Source: Candidatus Oleimmundimicrobium sp. (lineage in GTDB: Bacteria; Actinomycetota; Aquicultoria; UBA3085; Oleimmundimicrobiaceae). Taken from it: a stretch of 64,000 bases of DNA. The stretch is from contig NZ_JAUSCH010000084.1 in assembly GCF_030651595.1 (NCBI RefSeq), positions 1,338 through 65,337 on the forward strand, written 5' to 3'. Positions 2,613-64,000 of the stretch are shown in pieces. The notes below the pieces were generated by a model. That model was not told the origin of the DNA. It saw only the letters and a program-made list of their open reading frames with translations, and did no database searches. Positions within the stretch are counted from its first letter, which is position 1, and each line of letters starts with the position of its first letter. The translations under genes were made by a program, and so were the position numbers.

Positions 2613-2632
2613 TTATTGTCCTCCTCGTTTAT

Positions 2633-3382: not shown

Positions 3383-4377
3383 CCTCTCATTAGCTTTCTT
3401 ATAATTTTTTTGTGTTTTCTGGCCTCTTTGGGGCTTGGGCTCTCTTCGGTATCACCCGTGTATTTGATGAACACCTCGTCCAAGCCGGCTTGCTTCATCA
3501 AAACCGAGTTGATGGTGATTTCCTTTGAAGTCAAAACTTGCATGACCTCAGGCAAGAACTTGTCGCCCTCTTCCACTATTAGCTCCATTTCCGTTTCAAC
3601 GCATTTTTTGCTTTTAATTTTTTCCATTCCTTCCAGCGCTTCAGAAGCTTTCTCCACGTCCTCTTTCTCTATACGTATTCTAATTACATCTCCTCCAATT
3701 TGATTGGACAACGTGCTTGGGGAGCCCGAGCAAACGATTTTTCCCTTGGTGATTATGGCTACCCTGTCGCAAAGCGCCGCTGCTTCGTCCATGTAATGGG
3801 TGGTGATAAAGAAGGTAACCTTTTTTTCTTCTTTCAACCTGAGGATGAATTCCCATATCTTATGGCGGGCGGTGACGTCCAGGCCGATGGTGGGCTCATC
3901 CAGGAAGACGACTTCCGGTTGATGGATGAGAGCTTGAGCTAACTCCAGCTTTCTCTTCATTCCGCCGGAGTAAGTGGCTGCGGGATTATCCGCGACCTTA
4001 GAAAGTTCGAAGAATTTGAGGAAGTAATCCATCCTCTGCTTTCGTTTGGCGGGAGGTATGCCGTAAAGGGAGCCGAAGAGATCCAAGCTTTCCCGCGCCG
4101 TGAGAGCATCATCCACAGCCAATCCTTGAGGCACGTAACTTATGTGTTTTCTTACCTTGCGAGCCTCTTTTGCTATATCGAATCCACAAACCGATGCCTT
4201 TCCCCCGCTTTGTTTGAGCAGGGTGGTGAGCATGAGCACCGTGGTGGTCTTTCCCGCGCCATTGGGTCCGAGCAAACCAAAAGCTTCACCTCTTGGGATT
4301 TCGAGGTCGACATCATCTACCGCCAGGTTGCCGTCATAGTATTTGGTTAGTTCCCTTGCTTCAATTATTTTATCCAA
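3379..4377 (-). CDS. ABC transporter ATP-binding protein (DrrA-like, with C-terminal extension)
   Basis: Walker A GPNGAGKTT, signature YSGGMKRKL, Walker B VVFLDEPT. Confidence 0.85.
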   Translation of the reverse strand: MDKIIEARELTKYYDGNLAVDDVDLEIPRGEAFGLLGPNGAGKTTTVLMLTTLLKQSGGKASVCGFDIAKEARKVRKHISYVPQGLAVDDALTARESLDLFGSLYGIPPAKRKQRMDYFLKFFELSKVADNPAATYSGGMKRKLELAQALIHQPEVVFLDEPTIGLDVTARHKIWEFILRLKEEKKVTFFITTHYMDEAAALCDRVAIITKGKIVCSGSPSTLSNQIGGDVIRIRIEKEDVEKASEALEGMEKIKSKKCVETEMELIVEEGDKFLPEVMQVLTSKEITINSVLMKQAGLDEVFIKYTGDTEESPSPKEARKHKKIIRKLMRG

Positions 4378-4383
4378 TTGAGC

Positions 4384-5943: not shown

Positions 5944-8304
5944 TTAGCTCACCTTTCCTTCGTGTGCAAGAAACTCCCCAATGAACTTCTTTGAGTGTCC
6001 CTGAGTCTCTTCGAGTATTTCACCATAAGTTTTGCCGAAACCTTCGTGGTATTCAGCCGGATTATTTATTGCAAAGCTATAGTCTAAACCCATGAGCTCG
6101 AAGATTGTCTTTCGCATGGAGAATTCCTCATCTGAGTCATAACGGAGGATGGAATTTATGAATTCCACTCGGGCGTTGCTTTGAGGGAATTCTCCGAAGA
6201 CGTGCATGCCGTCTTGAATTTGGGTCTCTCTTAAGCGAGTTAAAACTTCGTGAGCCTGTTTGACGATTTCATCGAAGGACCCTTCTCCATGAATACCTTT
6301 TTCCTCGATCCCTATCTCTTTCTCCAATTTGGACGCCTTTATTTTGTCCACGATGAGGTGCTCCAGGGCATGAGCGCGAGCCGGATCGGTGATTTTAGCC
6401 TGGTTGTATTCGGCCAAATATCCTTCCAACTCCTTTAAGCTTTCGTAGAGACCGCTTTCGGTCATCACCGTCTGCATGTGGTCGATCAGCGTGGCGTAAC
6501 TTCTTCGCTTGGCGATGGTCCCCTCCGGCGGATTGTCGGCATTGTATATGTAGAGATGGGGAAGAGTACCGATTCCTATATCGGGATAACAGGAATCGGA
6601 AAGCCCTACCGCCTTTCCGGGCAAAAACTCCAAATTACCGTGGGTTCCCACGTGCACCACCACATCCGCTTCCCAGATCTCTTCCAGGTATCTGTAGGTG
6701 GCCAGATATTGATGGGTGGGAGGGCATTCGGGGTCGTGAAGTATCTTGCAGACCTGTCCGTCGCAGCGCGCCCCATAACACCCTCGTTTGGGTTGGACAC
6801 AGACCATAACATTTCCGTATTCTACCCCCGTGAGCACGATTTTTCCTTCATAAACCATGCCTTCACCGGGCGGCTCTCCCCAGGTGGAGGTCATTTTCTC
6901 TCTCACTTCTTCCGGCAACTTGTTCCACCACACCAGATATTTATCCAAGGAGAGGAGGGTGTGCGCCCCGCCCTTTGCAACTATCTCCTCTATGGGAGTC
7001 CATCTGAATTCGGAGATGGCTTTTCTCTCCATGATGGTCTCGATTAACTCTTTCCCGTTAGGGGGGTTTTTTTCGACCTTGTATCCTTGCTCTTTCATCT
7101 TTTGCATGATTTTAGCCACGCTTTCCAGAGTGTCCAAGTGTGCCCCACTGCCCACTGTGGCCTCCACGCTGGCGCAAGGGTTATTGTGCAGAACGAAGAC
7201 CACCTTCCGTTCTTGAGGCGGTTTTCTTCGGAGGCGCATCCATTTCTTGGCCCGCTCGACAATGTGATTGACCCGCTCCGGGATGGGCATATATTGTTCG
7301 AGAGTAACCCCGGTTTCCTCGTCGCTTGCTCTTGTTTGAACCCCGATTACCAGCGGCTCAATTATTCCATCAAATTCGGGCATGGCCACCGACCAGACTA
7401 TGTTTTCGGCAAGACCTTGAGCATCGGCTCTCCACTCCTCTTCGGTTTTGCGGTAAGAAACCAGGGGGTCAATGACCGGGACATCCAGTTTTTTAAGCAG
7501 TTCTACGCCTGCCTCCGCGCGGCCGATATCGGAACCTTCCGGCAGGGTTACCAGAAAGAAAGATTGCAAGTTGAGCAAGATATCGACGACCGATTTATCA
7601 TCTTTTGTCAGAAAAGCGGGAATTACCACATCATTTCCTTTGGCTCCCAGCTCATTTTCCTTAAAACCGTGAGAAAAGACAGGTATGATGTTGACATTCC
7701 TGTTTTCAAATTCACGAATAAGGGCATTCTCCACTTCGAGGTTTCCGTTTATCCAGTAAGAGCGATAAAAGAGGATACCCGCGGTGGGGTAGGAGGGGTC
7801 GAATTTCTTGTACCACTTAAGATAACTCTCAAGGTTGTCAAAGTGCGATGAGGCGTCGGGATGATAAATTCCCTGCCATGGCGTTTCTTGGAGCGGCTTA
7901 ACCTCCACCTCGATATCGAGAACCTCGCGGGCGATATAGGATAACAGGCTTTTCATGTTTTCCAGACCGTCGGTTACCAGATATTTATAGGCCGTGGCCA
8001 CTATCTCGGTGTTCACGGTGGAAAGACCCCAAAGAGACGGGTCGTGACCGAAAGAGACGGTGGGGGCGACCTTTCTAATTTTTTCGATTTCGGGGAGCAT
8101 CTCGCTCCAGACTTCGTTTGTGGTTGGATAAAGGAGGAGAACATCCGCCTCTTGTCGCAAATACTCCAGAAACTCTTCTCTTACCGGTTCATCCTCCAAG
8201 TCGCGCATGGAGCGGAGCTCAAGCTGTACGAAATCGAGCTCCTTGCTTGCTTGAACGAGTGTGGAAACGTGGCTTCCCCACATGATGGAGCCCACTTTTA
8301 TCAT
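5944..8304 (-). CDS. cobN: CobN/Mg-chelatase H family chelatase, N-terminal 786-aa segment
   Basis: CobN-like N-terminal region (MIKVGSIMWGSHVSTLVQASKELDFVQLELRS...). Ends at an in-frame TAA at 5944-5946, immediately followed by the continuing ORF. Confidence 0.7.
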   Translation of the reverse strand: MIKVGSIMWGSHVSTLVQASKELDFVQLELRSMRDLEDEPVREEFLEYLRQEADVLLLYPTTNEVWSEMLPEIEKIRKVAPTVSFGHDPSLWGLSTVNTEIVATAYKYLVTDGLENMKSLLSYIAREVLDIEVEVKPLQETPWQGIYHPDASSHFDNLESYLKWYKKFDPSYPTAGILFYRSYWINGNLEVENALIREFENRNVNIIPVFSHGFKENELGAKGNDVVIPAFLTKDDKSVVDILLNLQSFFLVTLPEGSDIGRAEAGVELLKKLDVPVIDPLVSYRKTEEEWRADAQGLAENIVWSVAMPEFDGIIEPLVIGVQTRASDEETGVTLEQYMPIPERVNHIVERAKKWMRLRRKPPQERKVVFVLHNNPCASVEATVGSGAHLDTLESVAKIMQKMKEQGYKVEKNPPNGKELIETIMERKAISEFRWTPIEEIVAKGGAHTLLSLDKYLVWWNKLPEEVREKMTSTWGEPPGEGMVYEGKIVLTGVEYGNVMVCVQPKRGCYGARCDGQVCKILHDPECPPTHQYLATYRYLEEIWEADVVVHVGTHGNLEFLPGKAVGLSDSCYPDIGIGTLPHLYIYNADNPPEGTIAKRRSYATLIDHMQTVMTESGLYESLKELEGYLAEYNQAKITDPARAHALEHLIVDKIKASKLEKEIGIEEKGIHGEGSFDEIVKQAHEVLTRLRETQIQDGMHVFGEFPQSNARVEFINSILRYDSDEEFSMRKTIFELMGLDYSFAINNPAEYHEGFGKTYGEILEETQGHSKKFIGEFLAHEGKVS

Positions 8305-10910: not shown

Positions 10911-12827
10911 CTATTCCATAATTTTTCTTAAACTGAATCCCAATCTTGTTCCCACCAAGGCACCCACCAAAGTGTATAAGAAGCCATCGATTACCGCGTA
11001 GGCATGAACGTACCAGGTCGTATAGTAAAGTCTGTATAAAAATATCGTGGTGCCGAAATTTATGTAAACGGAAAGGGTATCGGCCAACGCACAGGCAATT
11101 CCCACCGTGGCGAGAACACGCCATCTCTTTTCCGCGCCGATATCCGTCAGAATGCCGTTTTTCCTGGTCACGCCAAAGAGATATAGGGTGGTCTCGAGCA
11201 AAAAAATCAGAGATGCTTTCCACATGAGGGTGACGGGGCTAAAATTGCCGAGCACCACTCCCCCTAAAAGAAAACTTACACCCAAAGCGAGGGTCACCAC
11301 TCCCGGCCTGGGAATGAGGACCACAAGAGACATGATGAGAGCGTAAAGAATAATTTCATAAAAGATTCCTGTGATTAAGAAGCTAAAGGGGCCCAGGATG
11401 GCATGGAGGAAGTCCCAAAGGAGGGTGCCGGGCACATTGACCGTAATGAAAGTGGCCGTGCCAAAAAGAGCTATTATTACCAGCCATTTGGTCTTAAATC
11501 TTTTAAAAAATGCCTTTTGACAAATCATAAGATACCCAAGTCCCATCACTGTGATTAAAAAAGCTGCGAGAGTGATGAGCCCTGGGACCGGGTTTCTGGT
11601 GATGACATCGATCTCTTTTTGTTTTTTAGAGATGGCCTTGTCTGTCCCGAATATTTTAATTTCGCTCTCCAAAATATATTTACCCCCTAAGACCTCGGCC
11701 ACATCGACATAGATGGGAAAGGTTACTTTTTCTTCCGATTTCCCGGTCACCGAAACCACGGCGTAACTTACTCCCGTGCCGCCGCTTTTGGTGGAGGGAA
11801 CCCGAAAAGCCCGGGCTATCTTTTTTGTCTTGGGGTCCAGTACTTTGGATGTTACAAGAAAGACCACGTTATCTTGATTTTCATTTCTGACCGTGGTGGT
11901 GGCAAAAGCAAGAGGATGCTCGAGATAATCAATCTCTTTATCATCAGTTTTAAGTATTCTTTTTAAGAAATTGTTACCATCCACGCTTAAGGCCAGAGTA
12001 TTTTCCTTCTTACGAGAATCAAAATCTCCCTCGTCATCGGTGGGTACTTTGATTCCAGCTATATGAGCCAGGCCTTCAGCCTCTTTTAAAGAGATTACGC
12101 GCAGTTCTTTTTCTTTTTGGAACCGCGTGATTTTGTACTCGCCGTTTATCGTTTCCGCGACGGTGGCTTCTCCCCCGATTTTGTAAATGCCTGCAGCGAG
12201 AGTGGACGGCACTTCAAATTCCAGCAATTCGTTGAAGTTATCAAATTCTGTTACCAGCTTGCACTCGGCCGTGAGGATGTGACCTTCTTTTGTCTCTTTT
12301 GTCTCAAAAATTGAGGGTGTTCGAATCGGCTTGAACTCTTTAGGTAGAGTCAATTTAACGCTTGCTTGCAGGGGGTTGCCGGAGTAACTTTCTAAAAAAA
12401 CGGTGGCCGTGACCATGCTTCCTTTGACAACAAGGCTTCTCTCGTCGCTTTCCCCCGTCCCATAGGGGGCCTGAATAGAGAATTTAGCAACGGAGGTCGG
12501 CTTGGCTGGAGATTTTAACTCCTTTTCTATCATATCTCCGTTCTTGAGATTGATTTGGAATAAGTAAGACCGAGCCTCCTCCCAATCAAGAAAGAGGATG
12601 ACTTGTTTTGAGACTTCCGAATCGATGGTGGCCATGGTTATGAGCGAGCCATCCTGGTCAAAGACGCTCACCGAGGATATTGGGGTTTCCCTCGAAAGCT
12701 CAATTACGGCCCTATGGTGTCCAAACTCAATGGTTTTTATTTTTAAATCTTTCTCCTCTTTACCCCGGCAACCCGAAACCAAAAAGACAACCAGAGCTAA
12801 AATGAGGATTGTTTTGAGTTTTCTCAC
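10911..12827 (-). CDS. Large membrane lipoprotein: lipobox, about 400-aa extracytoplasmic domain, then a C-terminal block of about 6 TM helices (possible ECF substrate-capture/S-component-like protein)
   Basis: N-terminus MRKLKTILILALVVFLVSGC (lipobox). Beta-rich soluble domain. C-terminal hydrophobic helices (ITLAAFLITVMGLGYL...). Co-oriented and adjacent to EcfA/EcfT. Confidence 0.5.
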   Translation of the reverse strand: MRKLKTILILALVVFLVSGCRGKEEKDLKIKTIEFGHHRAVIELSRETPISSVSVFDQDGSLITMATIDSEVSKQVILFLDWEEARSYLFQINLKNGDMIEKELKSPAKPTSVAKFSIQAPYGTGESDERSLVVKGSMVTATVFLESYSGNPLQASVKLTLPKEFKPIRTPSIFETKETKEGHILTAECKLVTEFDNFNELLEFEVPSTLAAGIYKIGGEATVAETINGEYKITRFQKEKELRVISLKEAEGLAHIAGIKVPTDDEGDFDSRKKENTLALSVDGNNFLKRILKTDDKEIDYLEHPLAFATTTVRNENQDNVVFLVTSKVLDPKTKKIARAFRVPSTKSGGTGVSYAVVSVTGKSEEKVTFPIYVDVAEVLGGKYILESEIKIFGTDKAISKKQKEIDVITRNPVPGLITLAAFLITVMGLGYLMICQKAFFKRFKTKWLVIIALFGTATFITVNVPGTLLWDFLHAILGPFSFLITGIFYEIILYALIMSLVVLIPRPGVVTLALGVSFLLGGVVLGNFSPVTLMWKASLIFLLETTLYLFGVTRKNGILTDIGAEKRWRVLATVGIACALADTLSVYINFGTTIFLYRLYYTTWYVHAYAVIDGFLYTLVGALVGTRLGFSLRKIME

Positions 12828-27274: not shown

Positions 27275-29053
27275 ATGGAACCCATAAAAATTATAGAGAG
27301 CTATCCTGACAAATGTAAAGAGTGTTATAGCTGTATTCGCTCATGTCCCGTTAAGAGTATAAAGATAAGCAATGGTTGCGTTGAGGTTCTGGACGAAACA
27401 TGTATATATTGTGGTGAATGCGTAATAGTTTGTTCTCAAGGAGCGTTGGTATATAAAGACAGTATTCAACGCGCATATCGTATTGCCAACAAAAAAAAGA
27501 AAGCTGTTGCAATTTTATCTCCCGAATGCCTGGCCGCTTTCCCCTCAATTGGTTCAACTGAAATTGCTGCCGGGCTCATAAAACTTGGCTTTGATGCCAT
27601 TGAAGGGACTATCTTGGGGGAAGAACTTGTGGCCGCGGAATATAAGAAGATTTTGAGTCAAGCTGAAGATTTTCCAATGATTCGCTCCACGTGTCCTGTT
27701 GTTACAAACTTAATAGAAAAATATTTTCCTAATCTTATCCCATATCTTGCCCCTGTTGTGTCGCCAATGATTGCCCAAGGCCGTCTTTGTAAAGAGTTAT
27801 ATGAAGGGGCTTATACAGTCTATGTAACCTCGTGTGTTGCTCAAAAGGCCGAAGCAATGGATGAACCCATCGCAGACGCTATTGATACAGTGATAACATT
27901 CTCCGAGCTCAAGAAGATGTTTGAAGATGCGGAGATTGATCTTAAATTATTATCCGAGGCGAAATTGGAGCCGGTTGAGCGCGTTTTGCGGGTGGATTCC
28001 TTGCCAGGGGGATTGCCTCGACAATTTATGGCTAAAATGAGCACAATCAACCGTAACCTTAAGACAGCAAGGGGTGTGCAGGAAACGCATGCTTTAGCGG
28101 AGGCTTTAAACGAGGGTGAGATTCGAGCAAATTTTGTGGATGTTTTAAATTGTAAGGGTTGTATTGATGGGCCGGTGATGAGGAATGGTTTAGCTAACGG
28201 GAGAAGCTTATATCTTTTAAAGAATCAAATACAGCAAAGTTATAGAAGAGAGAGAAAAAAGATGGGGTGGGTTAACCCATCTGAGATACTCCCTAATTTA
28301 CCAAAAATAAATTTGAGGAGAACTTTTACCGATAAAACAATTCCCTTGGTTTCTCCCGCAAAAGAAGAACTGAAAAAATTACTGGCGGAGGCGGATATTT
28401 TTACTCCTGAAGATGAGCTTAACTGTGGTGCTTGTGGATACAAAACATGTGTTAAAAATGCAAGCGCCATATATCAAGGGGTCACTAACTGGAGCACATG
28501 TTTCCCGTATCAAAAAAAACTCATGGTTCAAATAAAAGAAAACGCGGAAAAAATATCCATGGTTGACGCAGTTACCGGGTTGCTCAATCATTATGGATTT
28601 ACTCGTACTCTTAAAAAAGAAGCAAAAAGAGCTCATCGGTATGGCTCGGCACTTTCAATCATAGTTCTTGACATCGATCGGTTTAAATTAATAAACGATA
28701 CCTATGGTCATGTAAGAGGAGATGAGGTTCTAAAATCTGTAGCAAAAATATTATGTAGCAATTTGCGTGAAACGGATTTTGTTGCTCGTCAAGGAGGAGA
28801 TGAATTTACAGTAATTTTGCCACAGATTGAAAAAACGGAAGCTTTCGCGGTTGCGGAAAAGCTACGTTGCAAAACCGAAAATTTTAATTTTATATTTGAG
28901 AAAAAACGCATTCCTATAACCTTAAGTCTCGGAGTTGCTTCTCTTCCCCAAGGGGAAAAAGATCCCTTGTTTTTATTTGATATGGCGGATAAAGCCATGT
29001 ACCAAGCTAAAAAAACCGGACGCAACAAAACATGTATCGCTAAAGATATTTAG
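27275..29053 (+). CDS. Sensory [FeFe]-hydrogenase-like (HydS-type) protein fused to a GGDEF diguanylate cyclase domain
   Basis: Two 4Fe-4S motifs (CKECYSCIRSCP, CIYCGECVIVCS). H-cluster motifs STCPV, TSCVAQKAE and NCKGCIDGP. Cx2Cx4Cx16C (CGACGYKTC-16-C). GGDEF with I-site RETD and A-site GGDEF. Confidence 0.75.
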   Translation: MEPIKIIESYPDKCKECYSCIRSCPVKSIKISNGCVEVLDETCIYCGECVIVCSQGALVYKDSIQRAYRIANKKKKAVAILSPECLAAFPSIGSTEIAAGLIKLGFDAIEGTILGEELVAAEYKKILSQAEDFPMIRSTCPVVTNLIEKYFPNLIPYLAPVVSPMIAQGRLCKELYEGAYTVYVTSCVAQKAEAMDEPIADAIDTVITFSELKKMFEDAEIDLKLLSEAKLEPVERVLRVDSLPGGLPRQFMAKMSTINRNLKTARGVQETHALAEALNEGEIRANFVDVLNCKGCIDGPVMRNGLANGRSLYLLKNQIQQSYRRERKKMGWVNPSEILPNLPKINLRRTFTDKTIPLVSPAKEELKKLLAEADIFTPEDELNCGACGYKTCVKNASAIYQGVTNWSTCFPYQKKLMVQIKENAEKISMVDAVTGLLNHYGFTRTLKKEAKRAHRYGSALSIIVLDIDRFKLINDTYGHVRGDEVLKSVAKILCSNLRETDFVARQGGDEFTVILPQIEKTEAFAVAEKLRCKTENFNFIFEKKRIPITLSLGVASLPQGEKDPLFLFDMADKAMYQAKKTGRNKTCIAKDI

Positions 29054-42332: not shown

Positions 42333-44882
42333 TTGAGTGAGCAAGTCACTGTAACGATAAATGGAAAAGAAGTAAAGGTTCCCGAAGGAGTTTTCATCAT
42401 TCAGGCGGCCAAGATGGCGGGGATAGATATACCCCATCTCTGTTATTGTGAATGCCTGCCCAGCACGGGGTCGTGCAGAGTTTGTTTGGTTGAAGTTGAG
42501 GGGATAAAGGGGTTGGTTGCCTCATGTGCTCGAAAAGTTAAGGATGGAATGGTGATTGCCACTGATACAGAAAAGATCCGGGAAGCCAGACGTTTTGTTC
42601 TTGAATTAATACTTTCAAATCATCCCGGCGATTGCATGAGTTGCGATAAAAACGGTGCTTGTGAGCTTCAGAAATACGCATACGAGCTTGGCATTGAGAA
42701 AACAAGTTTCTTGATGAAAGATCCCGGTTACGAGATAGATAAAAGCAATCCTTTTATAGAGAGGAATTACAATCTCTGTATTTTGTGCGGACGGTGTGTG
42801 GGAATCTGCAAAACGCAGGGGGCAGATATCATAGATTTTATAAAGCGAGGCATGATTACCAAGGTGGCAACCCCGTTGGATAAGCCCTTGCAGGAATCGG
42901 GCTGTGATTTTTGTGGAAGCTGTCTCGCGGTTTGTCCTGTTGGCGCGTTACTCGAGGTCGACAGGCGTTTTCGTGGGCGAGAATGGGAAATGAAAGAGAC
43001 AAGAACAGTCTGCTCTTATTGTGGCTGTGGTTGTGACCTTGTATTTGGCATCGTGGATGGGCAGATTATGAGAGCAACCGGCGAGGGCCTGGGAGATTTT
43101 CTCTGCGCGAGAGGCAGATTTGGATGGGATTTTGTAGAAAGCCCTAAGCGAATTACAAAACCTTTGATTAAAAAAGACGGGGTTTTAACCGAAAGCACCT
43201 ACGAAGAGGCCTTTGGGTTTGTAGCAGAACGTCTTCTTGATATAAAGAAAGCCCATGGGGCAGATAGCGTTGGCGGCTTTATCGGCGCGGGGAACACAAA
43301 CGAGGTTGCTTACTTATTCCAAAAGTTTTTAAGGGCCGGTATCGGGACGAACAACATCGATAGCTCCGCCAGACTTCTCGGTTTCCCCGCCTTAGTTGAT
43401 TTATATGAAGCGTTGGGAGACGGAGCTGTTGTCTCAATGAAAGATGTTGAGGAAGCCGATGCTCTCTTGCTCGTAAACGCGGATGTTACGGTGGCCTATC
43501 CTCGTGTGGGTGTAGCCGTAAAGAGAGCGCTTTCAAGCGGAGCGAAGTTGGTAACCATAGATGCCAGAAGAACGAAAATTTCCGAGAAAGCCGATATATA
43601 TATTCAGTCAAAGGTCGGCTCCGACGAGTTTGTCTTAAGTGGGCTTTTGAAAGAGTTACTTGACGGTAAAATTTACGATGAAGAATTCGCCAAGAAGTGC
43701 GAGAAATTTGAAGACTTAAAGAAATCTCTTGGCAAATTGAAGATGGAAACGGTAGAAAGAGAGTCGGGAATTTCTAAAGATGTTTTGAAGGAAGCCGCAA
43801 AACTTTATAGCGAAGGGAAGAAGGCGGTCATAATCTTTGGGGCCGAAACGGCAAGCCCTCAAACCATGGAATTGATTGCCGATATCTCACTTCTAACAGG
43901 TAGAACTAGAGCGAGCGTTCTCCCGTGCCTCCTCTCTTCTAATCTGCGAGGCACGGTTTACATGGGAGCTTTGGCCGAATTTTATCCGGGTGTAAGAAAA
44001 ATAGATGAAGCCAGGAACGATTTTGAGAAGACTTGGGGAGTTAAACTTCCTAAAAAGGCCGGGCTTTCTATTAAGGAAATGTTAGACGGAATGGGCTCAT
44101 CTATTCTTGGGATGTATATAGTTGGAGCGGATCCGGTTACTCAATTTCCTAACTCTTCCAGTGTGGCCAAGTCGCTCTCATCCTTAGACTTCCTGGTGGT
44201 CCAAGATACTTTTTTGACGGAAACCGCAAAGTTGGCCGATGTTGTGTTGCCAGGGATAACTTTAGCCGAGAGCAATGGAACCATTGTTAATATGGAATAT
44301 CGAACGAAAGAGGTTAGGGCAGTTATTGAACCTTTGGCCGAAACTGATTGGAAGACGGTAACCGCTTTGTCTAAAAGAATGAATTATACTATGGGCTACT
44401 CTTCTGAAAAGGAGATTGCCAAAGAAATAAAGTCTCTGGTTTTCGTTCCAAAGAAAATCGAAAGAGATACATATAGCTTTATCTTAGTGGAACCCAAGGT
44501 TTCTGGTGAAGAGCCCGATAAAAAATATCCTTATACTTTAATTGTTGGAGAAACAACATTTGGGTTTTATGATGGAGTTAGAACAAAAATTTCCAAACTA
44601 TCTGAACTTGAGCCAAATATGGGAGATTATGTTATTTTTAACTCAGACGATGCTGCGTTTTTGGGGCTTGAGGATGGTTGCAAGGTCACGGTTAAATCGA
44701 GACGGGGCAAGGTTACAACCTCGGCAAGGATACTTGATTTCTTACCCAAGGGGATGTTTTTTATGCCTAGTTGTCACCATAAACAAGGCGTTCTAGCGAG
44801 CGATAGCATAGATTTAAAATTAAAGAGCCCGCAAGATCAGTTAATTGCTGTAAGTGTTTCAAAAGAAGGAGTCGCCAAATGA
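42333..44882 (+). CDS. NuoG/FdhA-like Fe-S and molybdopterin-fold subunit lacking the catalytic Sec/Cys-His (non-catalytic formate dehydrogenase paralog)
   Basis: 2Fe-2S, His-ligated 4Fe-4S (HPGDCMSCDKNGAC), two 4Fe-4S and CSYCGCGC clusters. NNIDSSARLLGF replaces [11 protein letters not shown] of the true FdhA at 62773. Confidence 0.75.
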   Translation: MSEQVTVTINGKEVKVPEGVFIIQAAKMAGIDIPHLCYCECLPSTGSCRVCLVEVEGIKGLVASCARKVKDGMVIATDTEKIREARRFVLELILSNHPGDCMSCDKNGACELQKYAYELGIEKTSFLMKDPGYEIDKSNPFIERNYNLCILCGRCVGICKTQGADIIDFIKRGMITKVATPLDKPLQESGCDFCGSCLAVCPVGALLEVDRRFRGREWEMKETRTVCSYCGCGCDLVFGIVDGQIMRATGEGLGDFLCARGRFGWDFVESPKRITKPLIKKDGVLTESTYEEAFGFVAERLLDIKKAHGADSVGGFIGAGNTNEVAYLFQKFLRAGIGTNNIDSSARLLGFPALVDLYEALGDGAVVSMKDVEEADALLLVNADVTVAYPRVGVAVKRALSSGAKLVTIDARRTKISEKADIYIQSKVGSDEFVLSGLLKELLDGKIYDEEFAKKCEKFEDLKKSLGKLKMETVERESGISKDVLKEAAKLYSEGKKAVIIFGAETASPQTMELIADISLLTGRTRASVLPCLLSSNLRGTVYMGALAEFYPGVRKIDEARNDFEKTWGVKLPKKAGLSIKEMLDGMGSSILGMYIVGADPVTQFPNSSSVAKSLSSLDFLVVQDTFLTETAKLADVVLPGITLAESNGTIVNMEYRTKEVRAVIEPLAETDWKTVTALSKRMNYTMGYSSEKEIAKEIKSLVFVPKKIERDTYSFILVEPKVSGEEPDKKYPYTLIVGETTFGFYDGVRTKISKLSELEPNMGDYVIFNSDDAAFLGLEDGCKVTVKSRRGKVTTSARILDFLPKGMFFMPSCHHKQGVLASDSIDLKLKSPQDQLIAVSVSKEGVAK

Positions 44883-50502: not shown

Positions 50503-51570
50503 ATGGGCGATATGAGCTTAAAAGATGTGGCCATTATTGGTGGAGGTGTTGCCGGCATAAGTGCGTCCTTGGTCTTAGCCGATATTGGTTTTGCGGTTCA
50601 CATAATTGAAAGGGACGTTCAACTGGGTGGGCATGCGGTAAATTTTGCCTGTAAAGCTACGGATAAATGCAGTAAGTGTCTGGTCTGTTTAGCTGACGAG
50701 CTTGTCCTAAAAGCATTTCAACATCCTAAAATAAAAGTTTTAACTGGCTCTGAGGTGACGTCTTTTTCGGGCAAATCTGGGAATTTTGAGCTGCAAATTT
50801 CTCAAGCTATCGGAGAAGAGTCGCTTTTTAAAGAACTGATATTAAAAGTTGGAGCCGTTGTTATTGCCACGGGTTTTATGCCTTTTAATGCGGAAGAGAA
50901 AAAGGAATACGGGTATGGCAAATATAAAAATGTAATTACTGCTCTGGAACTTGAGAAAGACTTGCGTCTAACCGGAAAAGTTTTGAGGCCCACCGATGGA
51001 GCAATCCCAAAGAAAATTGCTTTTTTCCAGTGCGTCGGGAGCAGAGATGAGAGTATAGGCCGGGGCTATTGTTCTAAAGTGTGTTGTCCGTATGCGCTTA
51101 GACTTTCAAAGCTCATTAAATCGGAAATTCCTGAATCGGATGTTACGATTTTTTATATGGATGTTCAACCAGCGGGCAAATGTTTTAATAAATTTCGCCA
51201 GGAGTGCGAGGAGCTTGGGATACATTTTGTGAGAAATCTGCCCTCAAAAGTTTACGGTTATGTTGATTCGGATTTTCTGCGGGTTAAAAGCTTAAGTGGT
51301 GATAAGGGCGAGGTTGTTCAAAATGAATTTGATCTCGTAGTTTTGTCTGTTGGGATGTCTCCCCAGAGCGATGCAAGGTTTTTGGCCGATACTTTTGGGG
51401 TCAGTCTCGATAGATACGGATTTTTTGAGGGACAGGGATTTCGGGTTAACCTTTCGAATGTTCCCGGAATTTTTCTTGCCGGAGCGTGTCAGGGACCGAA
51501 AGACATCGAAGAGTCAATAGTTCACGGAAAAGCAGCAGCAGTAGAAGTTGCCAGGATGTTGAGGGTGTAA
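50503..51570 (+). CDS. hdrA: HdrA-like FAD-dependent oxidoreductase (N-terminal module)
   Basis: AIIGGGVAGISASL FAD fingerprint. Cys-rich CKATDKCSKCLVC. HdrA-like. Confidence 0.65.
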   Translation: MGDMSLKDVAIIGGGVAGISASLVLADIGFAVHIIERDVQLGGHAVNFACKATDKCSKCLVCLADELVLKAFQHPKIKVLTGSEVTSFSGKSGNFELQISQAIGEESLFKELILKVGAVVIATGFMPFNAEEKKEYGYGKYKNVITALELEKDLRLTGKVLRPTDGAIPKKIAFFQCVGSRDESIGRGYCSKVCCPYALRLSKLIKSEIPESDVTIFYMDVQPAGKCFNKFRQECEELGIHFVRNLPSKVYGYVDSDFLRVKSLSGDKGEVVQNEFDLVVLSVGMSPQSDARFLADTFGVSLDRYGFFEGQGFRVNLSNVPGIFLAGACQGPKDIEESIVHGKAAAVEVARMLRV

Positions 51571-53195
51571 TGGAAAAGGAAGTTTCCAAAATAGGCATAT
51601 TTATTTATGACTGTGAAAGTAAGCTTAAGAACATTTTAAGCACCGATGAAGCATGCTCAAAACTTGAGGGTTTAGGATTTGTTTGTTTTAAAAGTCTTAC
51701 TCCGCGTTTTACCGAAGTAATGTGTGATTTTGAAAAATATTTAAAGGATAACGAGGTTTCTAAGATAGTAGTTGCCGGTTGCAACCCTCGCCCCAAAAAA
51801 CAAATTTTTAAAAACTCTTTAAAAAAAATGGGCCTGAATCCTTATTTGGTGAACTTTGTCAATCTTAATGAAGTAATTGGTTATAAAGAGAAAAAGAGAG
51901 CCACAGAAAAAGCCGTTAATTTAGTAGTTCGGGCAGCGAAATGGATTAAGATGCAGGAACCTATTGGGACTCAAAAAGTTTTGTTAAATCAAAAAGTTCT
52001 TGTTCTCGGAAGTGGAATTGCCGGGATTGAAACAGCTCTTATTTTAGCCGAAGGGGGTTTGGACACGATTTTAATAGAAGAAACCTCTCATCTCGGTGGG
52101 GGAGCGGTTGCGATTGAAAACCTAAAAAGTCTTGTCGAGAGCAAAATCGAGGCGCTAACTAACGAAAAAAAAGTAAGGATTATTAATTCCTCATATTTAG
52201 TTGATTTGAATGGCCACGCAGGAAAATTTATTGCAAGAGTTGATGGTAAGCAAAAATTGACGGTTGAAGTTGGAGCAATTGTTGTCGCAACTGGGTATAA
52301 ACCGATTTTGCCTGTTCAAGAGCTTGGTGAAAATCCTGACTCTTTGATTATCGGGCAGAAAGATATGGGGAATAGATTGTCCTTAGGTAAAAATATACCT
52401 CAGCGTGTCTGTTTTTTAATCGATTTAGTCGATGAAGATTTAAAGATATCGACTCAGGCTCTTTTGAAGCAAGCTTTAACTGTTAAAGAAAAGTTTGGTT
52501 CTGACGTAATTTGTTTTTGCAGAGATTTAAAAGTTTCGTTTGATGGTGGGGAGGAGTTGTATAAGAAAGCTCGGGAAGCCGGCGTATTGTTTTTTAAGTA
52601 TGCTGAAAAACCAGAAATTAAGCTTTCATACAACACTGTTGAAGTTCATTTAATAAACGAAGATTACCCTTACGAAAAATTGATTTTTGAAAGCGATTTA
52701 TTAGTTGTGGGCGAGAAGGCAGTACCTGGTAAAAAATTTGAAGAGTTAGCTAAATTGCTCTCGGTTAATCTTGATTCAAAGGGATTCTTTCAAGAGGAAA
52801 ACGTGAAACTGTTGCCTACATTTTCCTCTAAGCGTGGGGTATTTTTTGTCGGTGGATGTCGTTTTCCACAAAATATAGAAGAGACGTTTTCCGAAGCAAG
52901 GGGCACGGCGGGAGAGGTTCTCTCGTTTCTATCAAAAGGAGAAATTGAACTGGATTTAACATCCGCGAAAATAAATCCGGATAAGTGTGTTCTTTGTCTT
53001 ACTTGTATTAGAACTTGCCCTCATGGAGCGATAGTTGTTGATTATGAAGAAGAAACGGCAAAAGTGATTCCGCTGGCCTGCCAATCGTGTGGGATATGCG
53101 CGAGTGAATGTCCCGTTATGGCCATAGAGCTTCCTCTTTATACCAATGCTCAAATTATCGGGCAGTTAAGTGATGTGGTAGGTGAAGCGGGTTGA
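51570..53195 (+). CDS. hdrA: Second HdrA-like FAD oxidoreductase with an MvhD-like N-terminal region and C-terminal 2x[4Fe-4S] ferredoxin
   Basis: VLVLGSGIAGIETAL; C-terminal CVLCLTCIRTCP and CQSCGICASECP. Start chosen at ATG 51570 (MEKEVSK); the ORF track extends upstream to 51486. Confidence 0.65.
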   Translation: MEKEVSKIGIFIYDCESKLKNILSTDEACSKLEGLGFVCFKSLTPRFTEVMCDFEKYLKDNEVSKIVVAGCNPRPKKQIFKNSLKKMGLNPYLVNFVNLNEVIGYKEKKRATEKAVNLVVRAAKWIKMQEPIGTQKVLLNQKVLVLGSGIAGIETALILAEGGLDTILIEETSHLGGGAVAIENLKSLVESKIEALTNEKKVRIINSSYLVDLNGHAGKFIARVDGKQKLTVEVGAIVVATGYKPILPVQELGENPDSLIIGQKDMGNRLSLGKNIPQRVCFLIDLVDEDLKISTQALLKQALTVKEKFGSDVICFCRDLKVSFDGGEELYKKAREAGVLFFKYAEKPEIKLSYNTVEVHLINEDYPYEKLIFESDLLVVGEKAVPGKKFEELAKLLSVNLDSKGFFQEENVKLLPTFSSKRGVFFVGGCRFPQNIEETFSEARGTAGEVLSFLSKGEIELDLTSAKINPDKCVLCLTCIRTCPHGAIVVDYEEETAKVIPLACQSCGICASECPVMAIELPLYTNAQIIGQLSDVVGEAG

Positions 53196-56872: not shown

Positions 56873-57934
56873 ATGGAATTTAAACCCAGTTGTCTCCCAA
56901 TGGCTGTTGGAAGCATGCCACATATGGATGCAGTTAAAGCATGCGAGGTAATTTTAAAATATACTCCTCAGATACCGGCATGGCCCCAACTTCCCAACCT
57001 TTCTTTTAAAGAAAACATGTGTACTCAAGTTTCAGAGGGTATGCCGGCAGTAAAAATAGATGAAGAGAAAAAGAAAATTTATCTGGACGCAGGGGACAAT
57101 TTAACTTGGAAGCTTGAGCAATTTTATGAAAAGTTCTTGGCTGAAGACCTCGACTATTTTGAAATATCTGCTGATTATGCTCGAGGGTTTCATGTCATGT
57201 TTGACACATTAAAAAAACACCTGCCAAGCAATTTAGTTATTCTTAAAGGGCAGTTAACGGGTCCAATCAGCTTTGGTTTGACGGTTACAGACCAAAATAA
57301 ACAAGCTGTTCTCTATAATGATTTTTTAAGGGATGCAATTATAAAAACACTTATGATGAAGGCCAAATGGCAGGAGAGGCAATTTAAGAAATTATCTGCC
57401 AACACAAAAACCATTATCTTTTTTGATGAACCGTATCTTCAGTCTTATGGTTCAGCTTATATAAAATTAAATAAGGATGAGGTCGTATCTTATCTAAACG
57501 AGTGTTTTTCTGCAGTTGAAGGTCTTTGTGGTGTTCATTGTTGCGGTCGAACCGACTGGAGCATTTTGATGGAAACCAATGTTAATATTATAAGTTTCGA
57601 TGCGTATGACCATACTGAAAGCGTAGCTCTTTATCCCAAAGAACTAAATAAATTTTTAAATAGAGGAGGAGTTCTTGCCTGGGGGATAGTGCCGTCTACT
57701 TATCCAACTCCGGATGCAATAGCGAAAGAGACCTTGGATAGCATTCTTAACCGGTTTGAAGAGAAAATTCAGTTATTGGTTGACAAAGGAATAGATAAAA
57801 TGAATCTTCTTGAAGCAAGCTTAATTACTCCAAACTGCGGCGCGGGCTCAATGACGGAAGAATTGGCGGAAAAGAGCATCAGATTAACTTCAGAGCTTTC
57901 TTTAGCTTTAAGAGAAAGATATTTTGGCAGATAG
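56873..57934 (+). CDS. Core-MetE-like zinc methyltransferase (cobalamin-independent methionine synthase C-terminal domain family, short form)
   Basis: GPISFGL; IIFFDEPYLQSYGS (compare IQIDEPAL); VHCCGR (His-Cys); ITPNCGAGS (compare PDCGLK). 353 aa. Confidence 0.6.
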   Translation: MEFKPSCLPMAVGSMPHMDAVKACEVILKYTPQIPAWPQLPNLSFKENMCTQVSEGMPAVKIDEEKKKIYLDAGDNLTWKLEQFYEKFLAEDLDYFEISADYARGFHVMFDTLKKHLPSNLVILKGQLTGPISFGLTVTDQNKQAVLYNDFLRDAIIKTLMMKAKWQERQFKKLSANTKTIIFFDEPYLQSYGSAYIKLNKDEVVSYLNECFSAVEGLCGVHCCGRTDWSILMETNVNIISFDAYDHTESVALYPKELNKFLNRGGVLAWGIVPSTYPTPDAIAKETLDSILNRFEEKIQLLVDKGIDKMNLLEASLITPNCGAGSMTEELAEKSIRLTSELSLALRERYFGR

Positions 57935-59194: not shown

Positions 59195-59710
59195 ATGGCA
59201 TGTCAGTGTAAGTGCGGGAAGTCGAGTGGTGAAAAACTCAATCTCTCTGAAATTTCTGATATTATTGAAAGATATAAAGATTATCCCGGGGCAACTATCC
59301 CGTTACTTCAAGAGATTCAGAAAAGGTTCGGTTATCTTTCTGAAGATGTTTTAGACTATGTTTCTGAGGCCACGGGGATTCAGTTGAGTCAGCTTTACGG
59401 CGTAGCCACTTTCTACCCGCAGTTTTCTCTTATTCCGGTGGGGAAGAACGTGATTTCAGTATGTCAAGGGACAGCTTGTCACGTGAGCGGGGCGAAGAAA
59501 ATAACAGAAGCATTGGCCGATGAATTGGGTATTGAAGAAGGCGAGACCACTCATGATCGGCAGTTTACTTTGAGATCAGTTGCCTGTTTGGGAGCTTGTA
59601 GTCTTGCTCCCGTTATGAGAATGAATGATGAAACCTACGGACGGCTAACGCCCAAAATGGTTCGAGAAATAATACGCAACATAAAAACTAAAAATAAGTC
59701 GATTAATTAA
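59195..59710 (+). CDS. NuoE/HndA-like [2Fe-2S] subunit (second copy)
   Basis: CQGTACHVSG...C motifs. Confidence 0.85.
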   Translation: MACQCKCGKSSGEKLNLSEISDIIERYKDYPGATIPLLQEIQKRFGYLSEDVLDYVSEATGIQLSQLYGVATFYPQFSLIPVGKNVISVCQGTACHVSGAKKITEALADELGIEEGETTHDRQFTLRSVACLGACSLAPVMRMNDETYGRLTPKMVREIIRNIKTKNKSIN

Positions 59711-59725
59711 AAACAGGAGGTTTAG

Positions 59726-60505
59726 ATGTTAATAATTGGAGAAAAAATTAATGTTATGTCAATGACTATAGGCCCTGCCATGAAAAATCGAGATCCCAAG
59801 CCAATTCAAGATTTAGCGGTTGCTCAAGTTGAAGCTGGCGCTAATGTTTTAGACATAAACATTGGACCAGCACGTAAGAACGGTGCGGAAATAATGGAAT
59901 GGGTTGTGAAGACCGTTCAGGATGCGGTCGATGTAATGCTTTGTTTGGATACTACCAACGCGGAAGCGATGGAAGCAGGGTTGAAGGTTTGTAAGAAACA
60001 GCCAATTATAAATTCTGCTTCCGGGGAGCCCAATAGGCTTGAAACAATGATGAGTTTGGCTGCAAAGTATGAGGCTAACGTAATTGGATTAACTATGACT
60101 GAGACGGGCATTCCGCGAGACGCAAATGAAAGATTAGCAATAGCCGTTGATATTATGACGAAAATGGCTGAAAAAGGAGTCCCAATGGAGAATCTTTACC
60201 TGGACCCATTGATTCTTCCGGTTGCTGTTGCTCAAGAGCAAGCTCAGGAAGCAATTGAAGCGATAAAGATGTTTAGGCAGTTAAATGACCCTCCGATTAA
60301 AACGGTTGTCGGATTAAGCAATATTTCGAATGGAGCACCTGCTGAAACTAAGCCGCTTTTGGATAGAACATATCTTACCATGCTTGCAACTGTTGGACTG
60401 GATGCGGCAATTGCCGATCCTTTTGATAAGGAATTAATGGATGCAGTTAAAACAGTGAGGATATTAAGAAATGAAGTTCTTTACTGTCACTCTTATCTGG
60501 ATTAG
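59726..60505 (+). CDS. acsE: Methyl-THF:corrinoid iron-sulfur protein methyltransferase (pterin-binding, DHPS-like)
   Basis: 259 aa pterin-binding barrel (LIIGEKINVMS..., DINIGPA...). AcsE/MtrH family. Confidence 0.75.
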   Translation: MLIIGEKINVMSMTIGPAMKNRDPKPIQDLAVAQVEAGANVLDINIGPARKNGAEIMEWVVKTVQDAVDVMLCLDTTNAEAMEAGLKVCKKQPIINSASGEPNRLETMMSLAAKYEANVIGLTMTETGIPRDANERLAIAVDIMTKMAEKGVPMENLYLDPLILPVAVAQEQAQEAIEAIKMFRQLNDPPIKTVVGLSNISNGAPAETKPLLDRTYLTMLATVGLDAAIADPFDKELMDAVKTVRILRNEVLYCHSYLD

Positions 60506-62311
60506 GTGAAATTTATGGCTAAAGGAAAACAAACCAAGGTTTTTATATGCACGGGGACGGGCTGTGTTTTAAGCGGTTCTGAAAAAGTAAAAACTGCTTT
60601 TAAGAACGAGCTTAAGAAACGAAAAATTTTGGAAATTGATATTGTTCAGACCGGTTGTCATGGTTTTTGTCAACAGGGCCCAATCGTTGTTATCCAGCCT
60701 ACGGGGGTTTTTTATCCGAGAGTATCTGTGGAAAATGTTCCTCGCATCGTCGAAGAGCATTTGGTTGGGGGCAAAGTTGTTGAGGACTTGCTTTATGAAG
60801 ATTCATTGACGAACAAAAAAATTCCTCTTTATAAGGATATAAATTTTTATAAAAAGCAAAACAGAATTGTTCTTCGGAACTGTGGCTTAATCGATCCCGA
60901 AAATGTAGATGATTATATTGAACATGGGGGTTATAAAGCTTTTAAAAAAGTTTTAAGCGAGATGGCTCCCGAAGATGTAGTCGAAGAAATTAAGGCTTCG
61001 GGCTTAAGGGGTCGCGGTGGAGCCGGGTTTCCCACCGGGCTTAAATGGGATTTTGCCCGAAAAGCCTCCGGTGATATAAAGTACATAATTTGTAATGCTG
61101 ATGAAGGGGATCCCGGAGCTTTTATGGACAGGAGTGTTTTGGAAGGCGATCCGCATAGCATTCTGGAAGGAATGATGATTGCTGGTTACGCTATCGGGGC
61201 TACTGAGGGATACATTTATGCTAGGGCTGAATATCCCTTAGCCGTTAAAAGATTAAGAATTGCCGTTGAGCAAGCCAGGAAGAAAGGTTTTTTGGGCAAG
61301 AATATTTTGGGCAGTTCTTTAAATTTCGAGATTAAGATAAAAGAAGGAGCCGGTGCTTTTGTTTGCGGGGAAGAGACAGCTCTTATGGCTTCAATTGAGG
61401 GCAAAAGGGGAATGCCCCGCATTCGTCCGCCTTTTCCGGCTCAATCCGGTCTTTGGGGGAAGCCCACCAACATCAATAACGTTGAAACACTTGCAAATAT
61501 TGCCTGGATAATAACAAATGGGGCCGACAAATTTGCGGCTATTGGAACAGGCAAGAGTAAAGGCACCAAGATTTTTGCAATTACAGGCAAAGTTAAGAAT
61601 GGCGGATTGGTTGAGGTTCCCATGGGGACAACTCTTAGAGATATAATATTCGACATTTGTGGCGGGATAAAGGAAGATAAGGAATTTAAAGCGGTTCAGA
61701 TAGGTGGCCCATCCGGCGGATGCCTTCCGGCTAAATTTCTCGATATATCAATAGATTACGAGTCTCTAACTGAGACAGGAGCTATTGTGGGTTCCGGCGG
61801 GATGGTTGTTATGGATGAGAGCTCCTGCATAGTGGATTTAGCGAAATACTTTTTGGCTTTTACTCAGAAAGAATCATGTGGGAAGTGTGTCCCTTGCCGT
61901 ATTGGAACGAAGCGAATGTTTGAGATGCTTCAACGGATGACCAGGGGGGAAAGTAGTGAGGAGGAAATTGTTCTCTTAGAACAGTTAGCTCAAGATGTTA
62001 AGGTTTCGTCGCTCTGTGGTTTGGGGCAAACAGCTCCCAATCCGGTGCTTACAATGCTTAAATATTTTCGCGAAGAGTTTGAGGAGCATGTTAAAGAAGG
62101 AAAATGTCGAGCAGGAGTGTGTTCCGAGCTTATTGCCTATGTTATTAAAGAGAATGTTTGTAAGGGTTGTGGTGTTTGTAAAAAACACTGTCCGGTGGGT
62201 GCTATAAGCGGGGAAAAGAAACATCCGCACGAAATAGATATCGAGAAGTGTGTAAAATGTGGCATTTGTATGCAACACTGCCCATTTGATGCAATATATA
62301 TTGCAAAGTAA
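60506..62311 (+). CDS. NuoF/HndC-like subunit (second copy) with an N-terminal 2Fe-2S domain and C-terminal 2x[4Fe-4S]
   Basis: GRGGAGFPTG; CGKCVPC; CKGCGVCKKHCP; CVKCGICMQHCP. The start may instead be ATG 60515 (MAKGKQ). Confidence 0.85.
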   Translation: MKFMAKGKQTKVFICTGTGCVLSGSEKVKTAFKNELKKRKILEIDIVQTGCHGFCQQGPIVVIQPTGVFYPRVSVENVPRIVEEHLVGGKVVEDLLYEDSLTNKKIPLYKDINFYKKQNRIVLRNCGLIDPENVDDYIEHGGYKAFKKVLSEMAPEDVVEEIKASGLRGRGGAGFPTGLKWDFARKASGDIKYIICNADEGDPGAFMDRSVLEGDPHSILEGMMIAGYAIGATEGYIYARAEYPLAVKRLRIAVEQARKKGFLGKNILGSSLNFEIKIKEGAGAFVCGEETALMASIEGKRGMPRIRPPFPAQSGLWGKPTNINNVETLANIAWIITNGADKFAAIGTGKSKGTKIFAITGKVKNGGLVEVPMGTTLRDIIFDICGGIKEDKEFKAVQIGGPSGGCLPAKFLDISIDYESLTETGAIVGSGGMVVMDESSCIVDLAKYFLAFTQKESCGKCVPCRIGTKRMFEMLQRMTRGESSEEEIVLLEQLAQDVKVSSLCGLGQTAPNPVLTMLKYFREEFEEHVKEGKCRAGVCSELIAYVIKENVCKGCGVCKKHCPVGAISGEKKHPHEIDIEKCVKCGICMQHCPFDAIYIAK

Positions 62312-62332
62312 GCTTTTTGAAAGGAGTTTCCC

Positions 62333-62761
62333 ATGATTGTTAAAGATATTATGACTAAGGGAGCTGCATCAATTTATCCGGATGCTACCGCTAAAGAAGC
62401 AGCAAACGTAATGAAGAAAAAGAAAGTAGGCTCGCTTTTGGTCGTCGATGACGAAGAACTTCTTGGGATAATTACCGACAGAATGATAGCAACTGAGGTT
62501 GTTGCCGTTGGTTTGGATATCAAGAAGACCAAAGTGAGAGATTTCATGCATGAGAGTGTTGTCTCAGTTTCTCCGGAAATGGAGGCGGCAAAGGCCGCTA
62601 AATTGCTTGAGGAGTTGGAGATAAGGTATTTGCCGGTAACGGTCAACGGAAAAGTTGTCGGGATGCTTTCTCTCTCTGATATAGCGAATTTTATCAGGGA
62701 TTTTATCAGCTGCATATTAATTGAGGTTGGAGCCCGAGTTACAAAAAGAAAAGAAGAGTAA
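62333..62761 (+). CDS. CBS domain pair protein
   Basis: 142 aa with two CBS motifs. Confidence 0.7.
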   Translation: MIVKDIMTKGAASIYPDATAKEAANVMKKKKVGSLLVVDDEELLGIITDRMIATEVVAVGLDIKKTKVRDFMHESVVSVSPEMEAAKAAKLLEELEIRYLPVTVNGKVVGMLSLSDIANFIRDFISCILIEVGARVTKRKEE

Positions 62762-62772
62762 ACGGAGGAAGT

Positions 62773-64000
62773 ATGCCTAAGATAAGTTTGACGATTAATG
62801 GCAAAAAAGTTGTGTCCGAATCGGGCCAAACTATACTTGAGGTTGCTAAGGAAAATGGCATAAGAATTCCTACTCTTTGCCATGATCCGAGACTTAAGCC
62901 CTATGGGGCTTGCCGGGTTTGTCTTGTCGAAGTCGAGGGGGCAAGAAATTTTTTGCCTGCTTGTGCAACTAAAGTTACAGATGGAATGGTTGTAAATACA
63001 GACACGATTCCGCTTTATGAAATAAGAAGAACCATAGTTGAGCTGCTTCTTTCTGATCATGAACTAAGTTGCATAACGTGTGAAAGCGCAGGCCAGTGTC
63101 AGCTTCAAGATTTGGCTTATGAGTTGGGGATAGAAGAGAATCGTTTTAAGGGAGAAAAACATGCTTATACCGTCGAGGATTATAATCCTTTAATTGAGAG
63201 GGATTTAAATAAATGCATCCTCTGTGGTCGTTGTGTTCGTATCTGTGAAGAGGTTCAACAGAATAAGATATATACCTTTGCGAATCGAGGATTCGATACC
63301 ATAGTTACAACTCCTTATGACAGGTCGCTTATTGAAACAAAATGCGAGCTTTGCGGACAGTGCGTATCTACGTGTCCAACAGGAGCCTTAACTGAGAAGA
63401 TGAGCAGGTATAAGGGGCGAATTTGGGAGATAGAAAAAGTAAAGACAATTTGCCCTTACTGTGGTTGCGGTTGTGAACTTGAGCTTCAGGTTAAAGATGG
63501 TGAAATAGTTCGTGTCTCAGCTGATGTCGAAAGCGGAGCGAATAAGGGAAATACTTGCGTAAAAGGCCGTTTTGGTTATGATTTTGTGAATCACTCTGAT
63601 AGACTCACCTCCCCTCTAATCCGAAAAGACGGGAAGCTGGTAGAAACATCTTGGGATGAGGTCATACGGACTGTTGCAAACAAATTTTCTGAGATTAAAA
63701 AGAAGCACGGCCCCGACGCAATTGCTGGTCTTTCCTCAGCAAAGTGTACCAATGAAGAAAATTATCTGATGCAGAAGTTTATGAGGGCGGTGATTGGCAC
63801 AAACAATATCGACCATTGTGCCCGGTTGTGACACGCTCCAACGGTGGCCGGTCTGGTCAAAGCATTTGGAAGCGGAGCGATGACAAATTCTATCGCCGAT
63901 ATACACGAAGCTGATGTAATTTTAGTTATCGGTTCAAATACTACGGAAAACCATCCGGTAATTGCTCTTGAGATGAAGAGGGCGGTATCTGATTTTGCCA
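62773..64000 (+). CDS. fdhA: Formate dehydrogenase catalytic subunit, selenocysteine-containing (UGA at 63832-63834), continuing past the window end
   Basis: 2Fe-2S, 4Fe-4S and CPYCGCGC motifs. [20 protein letters not shown] matches FdhF VDCCARV-U-HGPSVAGL. The frame stays open to the window end after the TGA. Confidence 0.85.

Follow-up and report, generated by a model that had tools for sequence, protein, structure and literature searches.

Results

Gene Content of the Locus

The window analysed here is a stretch of 64,000 nucleotides with a G+C content of 43%, in which the segment from 33 to 64 kb is a Wood-Ljungdahl cluster with fdhA at its end. The cluster starts with fhs, RACo, cooC, folD, acsD, nuoE/nuoF-like genes and the gene for an FdhA-like paralog; it continues with acsA (CODH), acsB (ACS), acsC, two HdrA-like genes, mvhD, metV, metF and hdrCB-like genes, and it ends with an unknown ORF, cooC, a nuoE-like gene, acsE, a nuoF-like gene, a CBS-pair gene and fdhA. 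The features at this end of the cluster were as follows:

59195..59710, + strand: nuoE/fdsG-like 2Fe-2S subunit (Pfam 2Fe-2S_thioredx, 4.5e-53; NF005722)
60506..62311, + strand: nuoF/fdsB-like FMN/NAD(P)H subunit (Complex1_51K, NADH_4Fe-4S, 2Fe-2S_thioredx, Fer4; PRK13596)
62333..62761, + strand: CBS-pair protein between the nuoF-like gene and fdhA (two Pfam CBS matches)
62773..64000, + strand: 5' 409 codons of fdhA, formate dehydrogenase alpha subunit (Pfam, PDB, TIGR01591)
63826..63884, + strand: full-length match to Rfam SECIS_3 (RF01989; 43.7 bits, E 7.1e-9)
63829..63831, + strand: in-frame UGA, codon 353, almost certainly read as Sec, at the Mo/W-ligand position (alignments, Sec/Cys alternation)
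63845..63859, + strand: putative SECIS apical hairpin, 5-bp stem, loop GGUCU (RNAalifold, pair counts)

The open reading frame called as fdhA, at 62773-63831, has 352 codons and a TGA stop at 63829-63831. An in-frame TGA had been described in the sequence-only reading, and it was found as described, with the ORF ending there and the frame open to the window end; the coordinate quoted for it, 63834, was a few bases off. Straight translation past the TGA showed that the frame is stop-free for 56 codons, up to base 64000, where the gene is truncated by the window edge. About 490 codons are absent, as estimated from L001, a locus in a MAG labelled 'Actinomycetes bacterium CSMAG_2342', which carries the nearest relative of the window fdhA (90% identity in amino acids and 83% in nucleotides). 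The fdhA frame of L001 has 898 codons, contains this TGA alone and ends with TAG, and the catalytic-Arg motif NPLRGQNNVQG is present in it, in a region seen only in L001. From L001 and another 336 nt in the public assembly L082, the window gene would be expected to stay intact beyond 64000.

The encoded protein showed the Pfam domains Fer2_4, NADH-G_4Fe-4S_3, Fer4_Nqo3, Molybdop_Fe4S4 and the first 133 positions of Molybdopterin, a layout in which a NuoG-like 2Fe-2S/4Fe-4S N-terminus is joined to a molybdo/tungstopterin domain. The best matches among solved structures were Rhodobacter capsulatus FdsA (6tg9/6tga, E 7e-100) and a further FdsA entry, 9wxb. TIGR01591, the NCBIfam equivalog 'formate dehydrogenase subunit alpha' with a cutoff of 666 bits, gave 260 bits over profile positions 1-180 with the 409-residue window protein, which is unable to reach the cutoff because it is cut at residue 409; the full-length ortholog in L001 scored 920 bits. 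The best explanation of these data is that the fdhA product is the alpha, catalytic subunit of a formate dehydrogenase of the FdsA / Moorella FdhA type, cytoplasmic and linked to NAD(P)H or ferredoxin, and we infer that its cofactor metal is Mo or W. The Wood-Ljungdahl context makes this enzyme the formate dehydrogenase that reduces CO2 in the methyl branch.

The nuoE-like product scored 161 bits with the NCBIfam NuoE model NF005722 (cutoff 141), and the nuoF-like product, which has an additional 2Fe-2S domain at the N-terminus and 2x[4Fe-4S] domains at the C-terminus, scored 411 bits with the NuoF model PRK13596 (cutoff 389). Judging from architecture and neighbourhood, these two subunits are probably the partners of FdhA, as in FdsGBA. 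Within 59195-62761 on the + strand, the methyltransferase gene acsE separates the nuoE-like gene from the nuoF-like one, and the CBS-pair gene precedes fdhA. L001 keeps the order cooC, nuoE-like, acsE, nuoF-like, CBS and fdhA (its positions 1014-4578 extend from the nuoE-like to the CBS gene), and L081 and L082 agree with L001 in the position of the CBS-pair gene.

Homologs other than the close relative L001 were at most 59% identical to FdhA. Protein scans found no relatives between 59% and 90% identity and, among metagenome contigs, none above 59%; a 30-mer scan of metagenome contigs for the fdhA locus gave no match, and exact-protein look-ups for the locus returned only contigs of 2.8-3.7 kb. 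The find comes from a poorly sampled lineage.

Other genes of the window are recorded here as separate observations. The FdhA/NuoG-like paralog at 42333-44882 (+), 849 aa long and 46% identical to the N-terminal part of the Sec-type FdhA, is located after the first nuoE/nuoF-like genes and before acsA/acsB. It has Leu at the Sec/Cys position (SSARLLGFP, compared with HCARL-U-HAP) and scored 455 bits with TIGR01591 (cutoff 666); it is probably non-catalytic and serves as a scaffold or in electron transfer. Two consecutive HdrA-like ORFs upstream of mvhD-metV-metF, at 50503-51570 and 51486-53195 (+), match overlapping parts of the HdrA2 profile, and the 85-nt overlap of the two ORFs as listed results from placing the start at the earliest possible GTG. 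The ORF at 56873-57934 (+; 353 aa), situated in the cluster between the gene for the HdrB-like CCG protein and cooC, and the ORF at 10911-12827 (-; 638 aa) had no Pfam/NCBIfam match. At 27275-29053 (+), one ORF encodes the C-terminal domain of an [FeFe]-hydrogenase large subunit together with an Fe-S motif and a diguanylate cyclase (GGDEF) domain, and its product looks like a hydrogenase-like sensor that may be coupled to c-di-GMP synthesis. Finally, a CobN/Mg-chelatase at 4384-8304 (-) appears as two same-frame ORFs, 8304-5944 and 5943-4384, which match profile positions 1-656 and 676-1089. The split gene was considered as a further Sec case and rejected, as the junction at 5943/5944 reads AGC TAA ATG GAA, i.e., a TAA followed by a start, with no TGA.

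The In-Frame UGA Occupies the Metal-Ligand Position

Next, the residue encoded at the UGA was compared with proteins of known structure. An alignment to E. coli FdhF, claimed in the sequence-only reading to be residue-for-residue, was indeed gapless, with 55% identity over residues 107-195 of PDB 1aa6 and X opposite X; the UGA thus faces X140, the Sec of E. coli FdhH. In the FdsA entries 6tg9/6tga and 9wxb, the residue opposite the UGA is the active-site Cys (CARVCHSPT). The conserved catalytic His354 comes directly after the UGA codon, and the 56 window codons past it follow the homologs colinearly, as had been anticipated.

The codon used at this site was then counted in 80 loci from reference genomes, which contain 84 homologous sites. 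TGA was present at 70 of the 84, the window included, and TGC/TGT at the remaining 14, and no other codon was found. The independent metagenome set, also of 80 loci, gave 60 TGA and 23 Cys codons. The same TGA is present in L001, L081 and L082. When the window was compared with L001, the 56 codons after the TGA showed 21 synonymous and 4 non-synonymous differences (upstream of the TGA, 120 and 35, respectively), and therefore purifying selection acts on the downstream frame at the protein level.

A six-frame scan of the window for TGA codons flanked by long open frames, both upstream and downstream, returned this site and three others; the three had no homology support, and no second credible selenoprotein gene was found in the window. 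Since TGA terminates 13 of the 51 window genes as an ordinary stop, the genetic code is the standard one.

The components of the Sec machinery were searched for as well. The domain search of window ORFs of at least 110 aa found no selA, selB or selD, and no tRNA gene at all, tRNA-Sec included, was found in the 64 kb; in the 15.8 kb of L001, selA, selB, selD and tRNA-Sec were likewise not found. We infer that selA/B/C/D are carried by the organism.

A Conserved Hairpin Follows the UGA in Sec-Type Genes

The stem of the hairpin begins 13 nt past the TGA, inside the coding sequence. It is formed by the pairs U63845-A63859, G-C, G-U, C-G and C63849-G63855, and it closes the loop GGUCU at 63850-63854, which places the loop Gs at +19/+20 and the U at +21 after the UGA. 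Folding of the window hairpin region gave no energy significantly different from that of shuffled sequence (z of -0.53 for 57 nt, -0.36 for 40 nt and -0.75 for 23 nt); thermodynamics alone therefore cannot support the hairpin, and the support is comparative.

For the comparison, two gapless alignments were built, A1 with 70 Sec-type segments of 60 nt, beginning 3 nt before the TGA, and A2 with 14 Cys-type segments. RNAalifold on A1 returned a single hairpin, columns 19-24 pairing with columns 30-35 around the loop GGUCU. These columns were 97.0% paired in A1 (66 distinct Sec-type sequences), a level reached in 0 of 500 shuffles, while registers slid along the alignment gave at most 59%. Changes on both sides of the stem were observed: across A1, pair 21-33 occurs as GC, CG, UA or AU and is never broken, and pair 24-30 occurs as CG, AU and UA. 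In contrast, the same columns were 54.8% paired in the Cys-type set, under the shuffle mean, and the median hairpin energy was -8.1 kcal/mol for Sec-type versus +0.95 kcal/mol for Cys-type sequences. The metagenome replicate behaved in the same way, with 93.5% pairing and -8.05 kcal/mol for Sec-type, and 65% and -0.3 kcal/mol for Cys-type genes. Moreover, the loop Gly codon was GGT in 65 of 70 Sec-type versus 2 of 14 Cys-type genes, a preference that is a constraint at a synonymous site, present only when the codon is TGA. Collectively, these comparisons support the apical GGUCU hairpin as a conserved, covarying element that is specific to TGA-type genes. The contrast in pairing between Sec and Cys genes (97% vs 55%) makes a clean control and brings nothing new to the understanding of SECIS elements.

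Within this family, the window hairpin is one of the weaker members. Its energy of -5.5 kcal/mol ranks 55th among the 70 Sec-type sequences, although it beats all Cys-type ones (best, -4.1 kcal/mol). The stem has 5 bp, one of them G-U, with G63844 unpaired opposite A63860, compared with six pairs in the family, whose helix reaches outward via columns 19-35 and 20-34; of these, the window retains only U-A. In the window protein, LVK takes the place of the LA(T/A) of most relatives, and the helix is weaker because of this LVK, the pair G63846-C63858 still being kept. For bacterial SECIS elements in general, a stem length of 6-8 bp has been described, with a conserved G in the loop some 20 nt downstream of the UGA (PMC4605307); the loop G at +19/+20 fits this description, but the stem has just 5 bp. 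One could speculate that such a weak 5-bp minihelix with a G-U pair and without a bulged U, in a rarely sampled lineage, points to an unusually permissive SelB, or to a SECIS decaying toward a Sec-to-Cys switch; we regard this as an unlikely proposal.

Longer versions of the element fared differently. The fold CCAA-CGGU-GGCC-GGUCU-GGUC-AAAGCAU-UUGG, which had been proposed to start immediately 3' of the UGA, is possible and close to the MFE of the 40 nt after the UGA, and its apical hairpin held up in the comparison, but its lower stem did not. As an RNA element, the CCAA/UUGG stem was rejected: it was 70.5% paired in Sec genes versus 82.1% in Cys genes, and because the conserved Pro/Ser-Thr ... 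Phe-Gly codons explain the pairing, the stem does not count as evidence of such an element.

The Rfam SECIS_3 match was obtained in a permissive search of 401 nt; it opens 3 nt before the UGA and covers model positions 1-59 of 59. Its 43.7 bits do not reach the gathering score of 63, and at the gathering threshold Rfam lists nothing. Part of the score is due to conserved coding sequence. The lower stem of the SECIS_3 model, 59.6% paired in this clade, was rejected, as was its bulged-U register, in which pairs 18-35 and 19-34 are mostly broken in this clade.

Alternative Explanations and Proposed Decoding

Gene callers end the product at exactly 352 aa, an in-frame GTG a few codons past the TGA is the start of an ORF in L001 (5661-7286), and the energy of the hairpin is unremarkable, all of which would agree with a TGA that is a true stop, the gene being either a pseudogene or split in two, one part for an Fe-S protein of 352 aa and the other for a molybdopterin protein translated on its own. 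Such a split, however, would fall at the metal-ligand residue and deprive both products of the ligand. In addition, the TGA recurs in 130 homologs from many phyla, alternating with Cys codons only, the codons from the TGA to the first GTG (HAPT) are conserved, and a hairpin with compensatory changes follows only the TGA-type codon, so that we consider a true stop highly improbable. Nor does an artefact account for the codon: one base change would be enough to turn a TGC/TGT Cys codon into TGA by a sequencing or assembly error, but this is effectively excluded because L081 and L082, assemblies of two independent SRA runs, share the identical TGA and its flanks, and L001, diverged by 17%, has the same TGA.

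The UGA might also be read through without selenium, with Cys or Trp inserted via a near-cognate or mischarged tRNA, or with UGA reassigned. No Sec machinery turned up in the window or L001, which would suit such a reading, and the Cys-type homologs show that Cys works at this site. Reassignment is excluded, however, by the TGA codons that end 13 of 51 genes and by the lack of any other supported in-frame TGA in the window, and a SECIS-type hairpin under selection is sensible only with SelB-dependent decoding; read-through of this kind is thus very unlikely. Decoding of the UGA at 63829-63831 as selenocysteine at the FdhA catalytic site is the reading that we prefer, and from the sequence comparisons we would give it a probability of roughly 0.93.

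Under selenocysteine decoding, the elongation factor SelB carrying Sec-tRNA(Sec) would bind the in-frame hairpin at 63845-63859 (loop GGUCU), and it would compete with release factor 2 for the UGA in the ribosomal A site, where it would deliver the Sec-tRNA(Sec). Codon 353 would then be read as selenocysteine, the ligand of the Mo/W cofactor, and translation would run for some 545 codons beyond the UGA.

Consequences for Annotation

The expectation that a gene caller stopping at the TGA would truncate this formate dehydrogenase was borne out by two public assemblies that call a 352-aa product. In the Logan assembly of SRR13727530 (L081), the fdhA call at 2619-3677 stops at the TGA and gives 352 aa, and in that of SRR34857729 (L082), the call at 1439-2497 stops there too (352 aa), with the 3' part as a separate gene at 2546-2833. 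Automatic calling thus breaks fdhA up, leaving a fragment of 352 aa and an orphan ORF for the 3' part, and this hides the first enzyme of the Wood-Ljungdahl methyl branch in metabolic reconstructions of an uncultured lineage. The Sec reading predicts a need for selenium, and selA/B/C/D, in the organism. The Sec codon and hairpin in fdhA are real and represent textbook biology, and the main value of the find is for annotation. FdhA is among the most widespread bacterial selenoprotein families (PMC9312934). As a separate observation, the relatives L059 (4962, 11042) and L065 (4995, 11030) each contain two Sec-type fdhA paralogs within 6 kb, each paralog having its own TGA and a GG(U/G)CU or AGUCU hairpin.

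Comparison with Known Systems

A Sec codon followed by a hairpin with a GGUCU loop in fdhA/fdhF is the classic bacterial case. The fdhF SECIS of E. coli, a sequence confirmed in 5419 of 5426 genomes of this species, has UGACACG and, at nt 22-27 counted from the U of UGA, GGUCUG in register with the window, and its loop G23/U24 are equally distant from the UGA, in agreement with the likeness to the fdhF element that had been noticed from the sequence. The two elements differ in the 3' strand, which in E. coli is offset by one base, resulting in the bulged U17 and a GGUC loop, whereas the window and its relatives have a continuous helix and a 5-nt GGUCU loop. The proteins differ too, as E. coli FdhF is without the NuoG-like N-terminal Fe-S domains and is part of the formate-hydrogenlyase complex.

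FdsGBA of R. capsulatus, an NAD-dependent Mo enzyme, is similar to the window system in the NuoG-like N-terminus and in the NuoE/NuoF-like partners, and the match to FdsA spans all 409 residues. Unlike the window protein, FdsA has Cys and not Sec at the ligand position, and because its ligand is Cys, it is without a SECIS.

FdhA of Moorella mulderi (L009), which here represents the Moorella-type acetogen enzyme, has the same domain architecture, 56% identity and a TGA at the same codon, followed at the same place by the hairpin GUGGCC-GGUCU-GGCCA(U). By comparison, the window hairpin lacks one pair and includes a G-U (-5.8 vs -9.6 kcal/mol), both differences arising because LVK replaces LA(I/T). 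The neighbouring genes also differ, the window having acsE and the CBS gene interleaved with nuoE/nuoF. The Moorella-type acetogen FdhA is a W/Se, NADP-dependent formate dehydrogenase, and the Moorella thermoacetica enzyme acts in the methyl branch of the Wood-Ljungdahl pathway, a role that we take to be the same for the window FdhA.
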